26,281 nt of DNA. It comes from an uncultured Candidatus Saccharibacteria bacterium. Its GTDB lineage: Bacteria > Patescibacteriota > Minisyncoccia > Sungbacterales > JACQCQ01. A model generated the notes under the pieces. The model saw only the letters and a list, made by a program, of their open reading frames with translations. It was not told where the DNA came from and made no database searches. Of the stretch, positions 15,192 to 16,089 are shown piece by piece; the stretch's first letter is position 1; each line of letters starts with the position of its first letter. The position numbers and the translations under genes were made by a program. The stretch spans positions 1 through 26,281 of the forward strand of contig CAZOFN010000001.1 in the NCBI GenBank assembly GCA_964579195.1, in the 5' to 3' direction.

Positions 15192-15231
15192 TTTATCATT
15201 AAAATACGCTATAGCGTATTTTAATGATAAA
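15192..15231. repeat. 40-bp perfect loop-less palindrome
   Basis: TTTATCATTAAAATACGCTA|TAGCGTATTTTAATGATAAA. Confidence 0.9.
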
Positions 15232-15260
15232 AAAGATCCGCCTTTTGCATTCATCGCAGT

Positions 15261-15289
15261 TTGACCCTTCGGTACTTTTTCTCTAATAT
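15261..15289 (+). promoter_or_regulatory. sigma70-type promoter of the tRNA locus
   Basis: TTGACC, 17 nt, TAATAT, ending 14 nt before the tRNA-like 5' end at 15304. Confidence 0.7.
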
Positions 15290-15421
15290 TATTCAGTGCT
15301 TTTGGGCGTGTAGCTCAGTGGGCTTGAATACAATATCTTGTGTTCAAGTGGGAAAATAGCGTAGCTTTACCGAAGCGTCATTTCCCCGGGATTTCGCTGA
15401 GGGGAGCGAAACAGTGCGTCA

Positions 15422-15547
15422 CCCCGCACTAAAATTTGAAGATACGGGCAATTAGCTCAGTGGTAGAGCGCGTCACTGATAATGACGAGGTCGGAAGTTC
15501 GATCCTTCCATTGCCCACTACTTCAGAGGTTCAAATTTAGTGCGGGG
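15422..15547. mobile_element. MITE-like insert with ~18-bp terminal inverted repeats enclosing a tRNA
   Basis: CCCCGCACTAAAATTTGAA (15422-15440) and TTCAAATTTAGTGCGGGG (15530-15547) are reverse complements apart from one extra A. Confidence 0.55.
15446..15517 (+). tRNA. tRNA-Ile(GAT), intact, CCA not encoded
   Basis: Acceptor GGGCAAT/ATTGCCC+A; D arm GCTC/GAGC; anticodon arm CGTCA-CTGATAA-TGACG; T arm GGAAG-TTCGATC-CTTCC. Confidence 0.96.
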
Positions 15548-15590
15548 CAGGCCGATAATGACGAAGTCCCAGATCCGATCCCTGGCACGC

Positions 15591-15648
15591 TCACCAGATA
15601 AATTTTCCGAAGGTGAGATCGAAGGTTCGATTCCCTCATTCCCCGTCC
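15591..15648 (+). pseudogene. Degenerate tRNA 3' half (Arg- or Gly-like), directly preceding the accessory array
   Basis: TCACC...TTCCGAA-GGTGA-GATC-GAAGG-TTCGATT-CCCTC-ATTCCCC-G, with one T-stem mismatch and extra bases in the anticodon loop. No convincing 5' half. Confidence 0.6.
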
Positions 15649-15703
15649 CGAAAAAAACAAGCACCCAAGCACTCAATTTTTATACGGATTGCTGGACATC
15701 GAA
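15643..15703. repeat. Unit-proximal repeat B, copy 1
   Basis: Ungapped 48/61 identity with 16699-16759 (hand alignment); core AATTTTTATAC...CTGGACATCGAA. Confidence 0.85.
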
Positions 15704-15753
15704 TCTGAAACCAACTTGTGGCCTTGGCGTCTTATCTGGTATAAGATACATCC

Positions 15754-16089
15754 ATGGAAAATACGCCTCGAAAAGGAAAATATCGCTGGATTGTGTTTAA
15801 AAAGGGCGCAGAATGGGTAGCTGCTGCTTTGGAGTTTAATATTGTCCAGATTGGCGATGACCCGAATGTGGTGTATCTCGAATTGGAAGAAGCGGTGAGG
15901 GGTTACATAGAAGCGGCCCAAAAAATAACTGGATTCCGTGAGAAAGCTATTAACCCAGTTCTGAATCAAGAGCCAGACGCAGAATCTGAAAGTCTTTGGA
16001 ATCAGGCTCAATCAACGACGCGAGAACCAGCAACTCCCCTCCCCGAGAATGTGTTTAACTTCGGTACTAGGAATTTAGTAACGGCGTAG
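15754..16089 (+). CDS. HicB-like antitoxin
   Basis: YRWIVFKKGAEWVAAALEFNIVQIGDD...ELEEAVRGYIE is a HicB-type N-terminal pattern; directly upstream of hicA. Confidence 0.72.
   Translation: MENTPRKGKYRWIVFKKGAEWVAAALEFNIVQIGDDPNVVYLELEEAVRGYIEAAQKITGFREKAINPVLNQEPDAESESLWNQAQSTTREPATPLPENVFNFGTRNLVTA

Follow-up and report, generated by a model that had tools for sequence, protein, structure and literature searches.

Nested isoleucine tRNA genes in a Sungbacterales genome: a probable layered scar of serial cassette insertions

How can a bacterial tRNA gene come to be split twice and to hold, within one of its loops, a second and complete tRNA gene of the same type? This question is raised by positions 15304-15596 (293 nt) of a 26,281-nt stretch of DNA, hereafter the window, which forms the first 26 kb of a contig (CAZOFN010000001.1) of a Sungbacterales genome. 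The DNA originates from groundwater metagenomes, and the host genome (G000) comprises 822 kb in 104 contigs and is 95% complete. In bacteria, group I introns are usually regarded as the only interruptions of tRNA genes, and integrase-bearing elements as the agents that displace them. A first description based on the letters alone (the sequence-only reading) proposed either that an element resembling a miniature inverted-repeat transposable element (MITE) had been inserted into an outer tRNA-Ile(GAT) while carrying a replacement isoacceptor, or that the locus encodes an unusual precursor from which the inner tRNA is cut out. We consider it probable that the locus is the layered scar of serial DNA insertions into a resident tRNA-Ile(GAT) and that the replacement inner tRNA is cut from a long transcript.

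Anatomy of the nested genes

The inner gene (15446-15518, plus strand) is called an intact tRNA-Ile(GAT) by both ARAGORN and Rfam. It is a canonical bacterial tRNA gene with a full cloverleaf, a score of 74 bits against RF00005 (cut-off 29), the acceptor strands GGGCAAT and ATTGCCC, and no encoded CCA. It is the sole tRNA that the two methods detect in the window and the only tRNA-Ile(GAT) found in the host genome, which is fragmented. The gene is clamped by the arms of a 131-bp insert (15422-15552), hereafter the cassette, in the anticodon loop of the outer gene. The left arm (15422-15445, plus strand) consists of CCCCGCACTAAAATTTGAA and a linker, GATAC, that extends the pairing to the inner acceptor stem. 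The right arm (15519-15552, plus strand) consists of a linker, TTCAAATTTAGTGCGGGG (15530-15547) and a 5-nt tail, CAGGC; a tail of the form CA(A/G/C)G(C) recurs 3′ of the right arm in other cassettes. The segments 15422-15440 and 15530-15547 are complementary at 18 of 19 positions, and this pairing, together with the ARAGORN and Rfam calls, confirms that an inverted-repeat element holding a complete tRNA-Ile(GAT) lies in the anticodon loop. No open reading frame (ORF) is present within 15304-15596. The insert itself has no match in Rfam 15 (gathering threshold or E up to 10), including Intron_gpI, and 73 of its 131 nt are tRNA, compared with the approximately 200 nt or more of a group I core.

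The outer tRNA-Ile(GAT) skeleton is indeed split twice, and every element that had been listed for it is found on the plus strand. Its 5′ stub (15304-15322) contains the acceptor strand GGGCGTG (15304-15310), followed by TA, the D-stem strand GCTC and the D-loop nucleotides AGTGG(G) (15311-15322). The middle part (15412-15421) contains the 3′ strand of the D stem, CAGT (15412-15415), G26 (15416) and the 5′ strand of the anticodon stem, CGTCA (15417-15421). Beyond the cassette, the 3′ part begins with C-GAT-AA (15553-15558), TGACG (15559-15563) and AAGTC, and continues with the T arm CCAGA TCCGATC CCTGG (15569-15585), the acceptor strand CACGCTC (15586-15592) and ACCA (15593-15596). The outer halves abut at 31/32 at this locus. 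The outer gene shares its anticodon arm with the inner gene; the acceptor stems of the two differ at four of seven pairs, and the T arms differ as well. The outer sequence matches the intact inner tRNA-Ile of a relative, G002, whose 5′ end is identical to the 5′ stub at 18 of 18 positions and whose 3′ part is identical to the outer 3′ part (15553-15596) at 35 of 40 positions, as counted by eye.

When the outer halves are joined in silico, ARAGORN calls them a tRNA-Ile(GAT) at a relaxed threshold only, and at the default threshold the call is made only after two hand repairs. Therefore, the outer gene is a recognizable but degraded tRNA-Ile, and the possibility that its halves align to no tRNA-Ile at all does not apply. 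In place, where it is interrupted by the inserts of 96 and 131 nt, the outer copy is detected by neither ARAGORN nor RF00005. Its defects are a missing U33, one A.C mismatch in the T stem and an imperfect 3′ strand of the D stem. The T loop TCCGATC also carries a C at position 55; this feature alone is not evidence of decay, because C55 occurs in apparently live tRNAs of this lineage. A tRNA with the anticodon TAT (Ile-UAU type) on another contig of G000 (C18, 9333-9404) has the T loop TCCGATT with C at position 55, and a C55 T loop is common to this tRNA, to a live tRNA-Ile(GAT) of the relative G026 and to the outer tRNA described here.

Such an arrangement might be suspected of being a chimeric assembly of two tRNA loci, and this is not the case. 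Across 15202-15469 and 15487-15800, Logan contigs of two sequencing runs agree with the window at every position, and parts of the region are also present in a run from another study. Only about 17 nt remain unbridged by these contigs, and they belong to the universally conserved anticodon-arm core of the inner tRNA. The independent contigs thus confirm the junctions; the inner acceptor halves, the cassette arms and the outer acceptor halves all pair perfectly, and a chimeric join is therefore excluded. In RNA runs, just 5-7% of the words of the region are present, and these correspond to the conserved tRNA core.

The 293-nt stretch folds as a tRNA within a tRNA (z = -3.8 against shuffles). 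A promoter had been placed just before the outer copy, and a promoter-like site, TTGACC-17-TAATAT (15261-15289, plus strand), does lie 14 nt before the outer 5′ end. The site comes from a consensus scan only, agrees with 9 of 12 consensus positions and belongs to a set of three such sites against 1.1 expected, which is weak evidence; it presumably drives the whole nested transcript. Approximately 30 nt before it lies a perfect 40-nt palindrome (15192-15231) centred on GCTATAGC. Ten palindromes of this kind, 30-58 nt long, are present in the genome, and three of them are upstream of tRNA genes (here, on C40 at 6621 and on C41 at 6281).

A cassette family and the locus in relatives

Public metagenome contigs were scanned for CCCCGCACTAAAA-N(80-110)-TTTAGTGCGGGG, and 61 contigs with the exact 13-nt termini and a cargo of 80-110 nt were found. 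The cargo is a tRNA in the same orientation in 52 of the 61, so that the search for other cargo between such repeats, which the sequence-only reading had suggested, yielded 15 anticodons and 10 amino acids: Pro (13), Ile(GAT) (11), Val (8), Arg (7), Glu (6), Ser (3), and Trp, Phe, Lys and Asp (1 each). Most of these 52 cassettes are bordered, immediately beyond the arms, by the 5′ or 3′ portion of a tRNA of the same type. Homology on the left side extends most often to position 35 (8 cases) and next to position 19 (3 cases), and homology on the right side mostly begins at 32-36; the usual breakpoint is inside the anticodon (35/36), and a smaller number fall in the D-loop. In many, though not all, cassettes, TGA or TCA precedes the left arm (no statistics). 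The cassette stems contain 620 Watson-Crick, 4 G.U and 4 A.C pairs, and the wobble pairs have no strand bias. Among 62 genomes of the same order, cassettes with these termini are present in 8, with at most 2 per genome, and a cargo-less hairpin with these ends is present in none. Exact-pattern matches of one element of the locus were located in metagenome-assembled genomes labelled Candidatus Sungbacteria, Sungiibacteriota or Patescibacteria. The cassette has 0 matches in viral contigs, so carriage by phages is unsupported.

The same locus can be followed in relatives. It lies downstream of dnaE and rnhB in G000, and rnhB is likewise upstream of tRNA-Ile in G001, G002 and G003, which represent three other genera of the same family. 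The comparison, which had also been proposed at the outset, reveals four states in four genera of one family: a bare tRNA-Ile without stubs in G001, a D-loop nest in G002, the present nest in G000 and a decayed nest in G003. In G002, the D-loop holds a cassette of another class (CTTGCCCCGCCAC...GTGGCGGGGTGAAG), the broken outer gene is the family-type tRNA (T arm GGAAG/CTTCC), and the live inner gene is of the GGGCGTG type. The arrangement in G000 is the reverse, with inner and outer types swapped, and its inner copy is 95% identical to the tRNA-Ile of G001. This polymorphism with swapped types argues against a local duplication and for the exchange of foreign alleles; together with the acceptor stems that differ at four of seven pairs, it bears out the earlier remark that the nest is not a simple local duplication. 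In G003, the right arm and a remnant of the outer loop persist. The tRNA-Ile(GAT) of G003 (contig C65, locus L005, 1508-1580) has GGGCAAT on the 5′ side of the acceptor stem and GTCGCCC on the 3′ side, with two non-Watson-Crick pairs; this stem is apparently chimeric, as from a recombination of two tRNA-Ile alleles within the gene.

Deeper nests are found in other members of the order. In the complete genome G026, the tRNA-Ile nest is 3-4 layers deep (L015/L026, C1 approximately 683760-684230); two cassette classes occupy its D-loop and anticodon loop, and two further 3′ tRNA-Ile fragments follow. Three stacked 5′ stubs and no 3′ stubs are present in G020, and several truncated layers are present in G038; such 5′ stubs without 3′ stubs indicate that the outer parts decay. 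The pattern among relatives is as predicted by repeated insertion followed by decay and is hard to square with a functional shell or a local duplication. Because the same termini flank 15 cargos, the flanks are halves of the same tRNA, the locus is bare in a relative and the alleles are swapped, the insertion reading is well supported.

According to the layered-scar reading, a 131-bp gene-less cassette would have landed in the anticodon loop of a resident tRNA-Ile(GAT). The cassette is a long hairpin with the conserved ends CCCCGCACTAAAA...TTTAGTGCGGGG and a short CAGGC tail and with a complete tRNA-Ile(GAT) at its tip, and the broken outer copy bears in its D-loop a separate three-hairpin repeat element of approximately 96 nt. 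The outer halves would now be dead and their pieces waste, and the inner tRNA would be the working gene, transcribed from the promoter of the old gene within a nested precursor of approximately 300 nt. Release would require only ordinary tRNA processing, namely RNase P at the 5′ end and trimming and CCA addition at the 3′ end, and RNase III may act on the long stem. RNase III and RNase P RNA are both present in G000. The breakage of an essential single-copy tRNA gene would be survivable solely because a replacement comes with the insert, and the cargo type would equal the target type because any other combination would be lethal.

Downstream of the locus are a HicA toxin gene and small ORFs. 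Positions 15624-15645 of the window are a 22-nt exact copy of the 3′ end of tRNA-Trp(CCA), including the T arm and the acceptor strand, whose gene is on contig C16. This copy is located 28 nt past the outer tRNA-Ile, at the start of the variable region with HicA and the small ORFs, and looks like the attachment-site scar of another element.

The three-hairpin module, candidate enzymes and rival explanations

The three hairpins that had been seen in the outer D loop are present. The sequence-only reading treated them as belonging to one overall structure, but they form a conserved, multi-copy module that is distinct from the cassette. The module (15319-15414, approximately 96 nt, plus strand) follows G18-G19 of the outer D-loop and comprises H1 (15323-15348), H2 (15350-15387) and H3 (15392-15411). 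A covariance model built from six copies (R1) recovers it with 80.9 bits and detects it in 43 of the 62 genomes examined from the order; the copy number reaches 20 in a single genome and is 8 in G000. In an alignment of 38 copies, 97.2% of the cells are paired, 27 of 29 pairs have compensatory double changes, and the covariation score is 0.584, compared with 0.17 in shuffles and at most 0.12 in slid controls. The loop nucleotides are conserved, and G.U pairs are in mild excess over A.C pairs on the tRNA-sense strand (29 vs 12), a wobble-pair strand-bias test that does not separate constraint at the RNA level from constraint at the DNA level. No match to the module was found among the Rfam 15 families, whether at the gathering threshold or with E up to 10.

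In nearly every case, the module interrupts the D-loop of a 5′ stub behind G18-G19, and an intact tRNA of the same type follows 15-50 nt downstream; the types include Val, Glu, Ser, Thr, Arg, Gly, Ala, Cys, Asn and Ile. At some loci the module separates positions 53 and 54 in the T arm of a dead copy, and both sites are in the loops that form the tRNA elbow. Five copies with a short H2 in G000 (Ile, Cys, Thr, Val and Arg loci) are mutual nearest relatives with 68-86% identity (0.68 for the Arg copy on C5 and 0.75-0.86 for the other four) and resemble one another more than they resemble copies from sister genera, which points to copying of the module within the lineage. Long versions of the module that are split or ORF-bearing were not found in G000. 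The T-loops of a dead tRNA-Ser and a dead tRNA-Asp in G026 (L150 and L151, C1, approximately 292600 and 410630-410870) hold at least two tandem modules or pieces, including, for example, separate H1-type hairpins; the three hairpins may be separable units.

Could the outer tRNA be restored by splicing? Neither the tRNA splicing endonuclease EndA (PF01974) nor the ligase RtcB (PF01139) was found in the 95%-complete G000, with controls as expected, and the locus has no Rfam match to a group I intron or other ribozyme. The junction helices are, by eye, long perfect stems and not 3-4-3 bulge-helix-bulge structures (no scan for this motif was run). Splicing of the outer tRNA is therefore unlikely, given that no EndA, RtcB or group I intron was found. 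The two alternatives of the sequence-only reading, the inserted element and the precursor that releases the inner tRNA, are complementary aspects of one picture, and that reading is partly supported.

The enzymes that might have moved the cassette were also considered. Insertion by an integrase was rejected, as no tyrosine recombinase was found in the 95%-complete G000 and a whole tRNA, not part of one, is carried; G000 lacks any PF00589 match, even of the Xer type, and 14 of 14 control genomes gave matches. A Y1 (HUH) transposase-like ORF is present in G000 (contig C93) and in 46 of the 62 genomes, but two complete genomes with many three-hairpin modules, G002 and G021, lack it. Y1/RAYT is disfavored as the mobilizer, since its presence or absence does not track the module and since the RAYT-like ORF of G000 is flanked by a different palindrome. 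This ORF (227 aa, on the minus strand of C93 at approximately 880-1570 in plus-strand coordinates) contains two in-frame copies of a palindrome, CTTGGAGGCTCGGCCTCCAAG, which translates as QLGGSASK, and a third copy lies just upstream.

Although we favor the layered scar, the nest could have been kept for the sake of its RNA. The outer acceptor stem and T arm would then form, with the module, a functional shell that might stabilize the transcript, guide RNase P or RNase III, or form a two-piece noncoding RNA after release of the tRNA. Such a role would suit the fold of the whole stretch as a tRNA within a tRNA, the strong covariation, conserved loops and G.U excess of the module, its constant position shortly before a live tRNA of the same orientation, the siting of the inserts in tRNA loops, where the stems of the host can still close, and the outer tRNA of G026, which is intact apart from its inserts. 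We nevertheless regard it as improbable: the outer 3′ halves have often been lost or have decayed (G020, G003 and the C64 locus), the module lies upstream of only 3 of the 52 metagenome cassettes, relatives get by with a bare tRNA-Ile at this locus, the stems of the cassette have no strand bias (4 G.U vs 4 A.C), and the module also occurs in the T-loops of dead copies downstream of a live tRNA. Far less credible is an intron-like system that would excise both inserts from the RNA and leave the outer tRNA-Ile as a second working tRNA. The inserts are located exactly in loops, as in archaeal multi-intron tRNAs, and the outer gene encodes CCA and a full acceptor stem; however, neither a splicing endonuclease nor RtcB was found in the 95%-complete genome, no ribozyme was matched, U33 is missing, the T stem and the D stem are flawed, and the outer halves have been lost in relatives.

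A homing origin has about as little chance as a functional shell. According to this proposal, a GIY-YIG gene once accompanied the replacement tRNA, cut an intact tRNA-Ile, was copied in by break repair and was later lost. Small GIY-YIG ORFs do occur inside comparable nests (the tRNA-Asn on C2 of G000, a tRNA-Ile in G031 and a tRNA-Ser in G026), and G000 has 7 small GIY-YIG matches in 822 kb. However, a GIY-YIG ORF is located within 600 nt in only 1 of the 61 contigs with the cassette termini, GIY-YIG number does not track module copy number across the 62 genomes (rho 0.17, p 0.19), and genomes with a single GIY-YIG match, probably UvrC, still hold 3-5 modules. For this low linkage and lack of correlation, GIY-YIG was rejected as the mobilizer of this cassette class. 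Furthermore, the inner anticodon arm is the same as the outer one, so immunity to the nuclease would not be obvious. A local duplication without a mobile element, for example by a template switch at a palindrome through which the resident tRNA was copied into itself, is no more plausible than splicing. Inner and outer genes are the same isoacceptor and share an anticodon arm, but their acceptor stems and T arms differ, the inner gene matches that of G001 and the outer gene the inner one of G002, the types are swapped between G000 and G002, and identical termini carry many other tRNAs in unrelated contigs.

Two further details concern small GIY-YIG ORFs of G000. On contig C2 (L035, 20990-21470, minus strand), the arms of a 12-bp inverted repeat clamp a tRNA-Asn(GTT), and a small GIY-YIG ORF comes directly before this tRNA; the whole unit is enclosed in a broken outer tRNA-Asn, with GC-rich hairpins plugging the D stem and T loop of the latter. 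On contig C22 (L032, approximately 370-670), a 20-bp inverted repeat (CCCCCCACCACTTTTGCATT / AATGCAAAAGTGGTGGGGGG) encloses a small GIY-YIG ORF, which lies immediately before GAGGAAAGTCCG, a conserved core sequence of RNase P RNA; an RF00010 match starts further downstream, at C22:779 and model position 60. This ORF appears to be inserted in a 5′ hairpin of the RNase P RNA gene.

Several observations weigh against the layered-scar reading. The mobility of the cassette is read from its distribution, and no true pair of filled and empty sites with identical flanks was found among the sequences compared. The reading does not account for the carriage of 15 different tRNAs by one pair of termini, and this cassette class has no linked gene for a transposase, integrase or nuclease, with a GIY-YIG ORF within 600 nt in just 1 of 61 contigs. 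The cassettes have no consistent target-site duplication, and a genome-wide search, as suggested by the sequence-only reading, found the inverted repeat to be single-copy in G000. The outer tRNA-Ile of G026 is perfectly intact apart from its inserts, which may reflect either recency or selection, and the conserved loops, the G.U excess and the elbow-loop siting of the module would also fit a function at the RNA level. The inverted repeat is not a genome-wide repeat, and CCCCGCAC is not over-represented (16 found vs 12.6 expected). Of the proposed MITE-like element with a replacement isoacceptor, the insertion stands but the MITE label applies only in a loose sense: terminal inverted repeats are present, but a fixed-length target-site duplication, many near-identical copies per genome and a related autonomous element are not, no autonomous partner was seen, and no cargo-less copies were found in the 62 relatives.

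A bolder reading is possible, although we hold it only tentatively. The tRNA would be an obligatory working part of a gene-less mobile element, its shape or sequence, as RNA or as folded single-stranded DNA, would address and move the element, and the module would represent a new family of structured nucleic acids that docks at the two elbow loops. The cassette has never been seen without a tRNA, which is the most telling hint that the tRNA itself takes part in targeting or mobility, and it would home into the anticodon (35/36) or the D-loop of the same tRNA.

Known systems and the meaning of the nests

The layered-scar reading has counterparts in several known systems. Integrative elements, such as phages, islands and integrative and conjugative elements (ICEs), use tRNA genes as insertion sites and repair the interrupted gene with a copy that they carry; Williams reportedly described in 2002 anticodon-loop and T-loop sublocations of such elements in tRNA genes. 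The present nests resemble them in that a tRNA gene is hit, often in its anticodon loop, that the element brings a sequence that keeps a working tRNA, and that displaced tRNA pieces stay behind as scars, which stack after repeated hits. However, integrative elements span kilobases, code for an integrase and bring no more of the tRNA than its 3′ part, whereas the element described here has 131 bp and a complete tRNA as its only gene, produces a nest and not a displaced 3′ end, and resides in a genome in which no tyrosine recombinase was found.

In form, the cassette recalls palindromic non-autonomous repeats, which include REP/REPIN with RAYT, PATEs derived from IS200/IS605 and the Rickettsia palindromic elements. 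Like these, it is short, gene-less and hairpin-forming, lacks a target-site duplication and is tolerated in permissive sites, and a Y1 (HUH)-like ORF is present in G000 and 46 of the 62 relatives. In contrast, the known repeats are free of cargo and reach high copy numbers per genome, whereas the cassette bears a tRNA, is single-copy here and has no known cargo-less version among the genomes searched; Y1 genes are, moreover, missing from the module-rich complete genomes G002 and G021. Free-standing GIY-YIG homing endonucleases, such as SegB of phage T4, reside in tRNA gene clusters. They are likewise selfish DNA in tRNA genes, and some nests in G000 and its relatives hold a small GIY-YIG gene, but no nuclease gene is near the present locus or near 60 of the 61 cassettes with the same termini. 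Bacterial rRNA intervening sequences are removed by RNase III without re-ligation. They too are long stem-forming inserts in the loop of a stable RNA, and the cassette would be cut out by a comparable route, RNase III being present in G000. However, a fragmented rRNA works, whereas a tRNA cut in its anticodon loop cannot, and a replacement tRNA would be carried for this reason.

A further parallel to the break-and-replace logic is archaeal. As outlined by Sugahara et al. (2012; PMC3293823), a tRNA-Thr gene of Caldiarchaeum is disrupted by a 1.8-kb mobile element that encodes a recombinase. The case shares with ours a population heterogeneity at one tRNA locus and a left-over 5′ fragment beside an element and a second tRNA copy (PMC3293823). 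It differs in that splicing machinery rescues the archaeal tRNAs (PMC3293823), whereas our host is a bacterium in which neither a recombinase nor splicing machinery was found. In its logic of breaking and replacing a tRNA gene, the nest follows integrative elements and this archaeal case (PMC3293823), and in its form it follows palindromic non-autonomous repeats. None of these families has all of its defining features present here.

Full-text literature searches returned no description of nested bacterial tRNA genes. What is new is one cassette class that is defined by exact termini and has 15 cargos and no empty copies; a three-hairpin module that forms a separate, covarying repeat family specific to the elbow loops; and the swapped inner and outer alleles at an orthologous locus, together with negative nuclease and transposase tests for this cassette class. 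If our reading is true, these nests would also be a source of mis-annotation, as tRNA finders see only the inner gene and the pseudo-halves resemble introns or att sites. Two compact and strongly structured elements, the tRNA cassette and the three-hairpin module, would be on offer, and the cassette would be a natural counterpart of the tRNA scaffold that is used for recombinant RNA expression. Above all, the essential tRNA genes of ultra-small bacteria would be repeatedly overwritten by tiny, gene-less cassettes that bear their own replacement and leave scars nested like Russian dolls, which would represent a new route of horizontal tRNA gene turnover.

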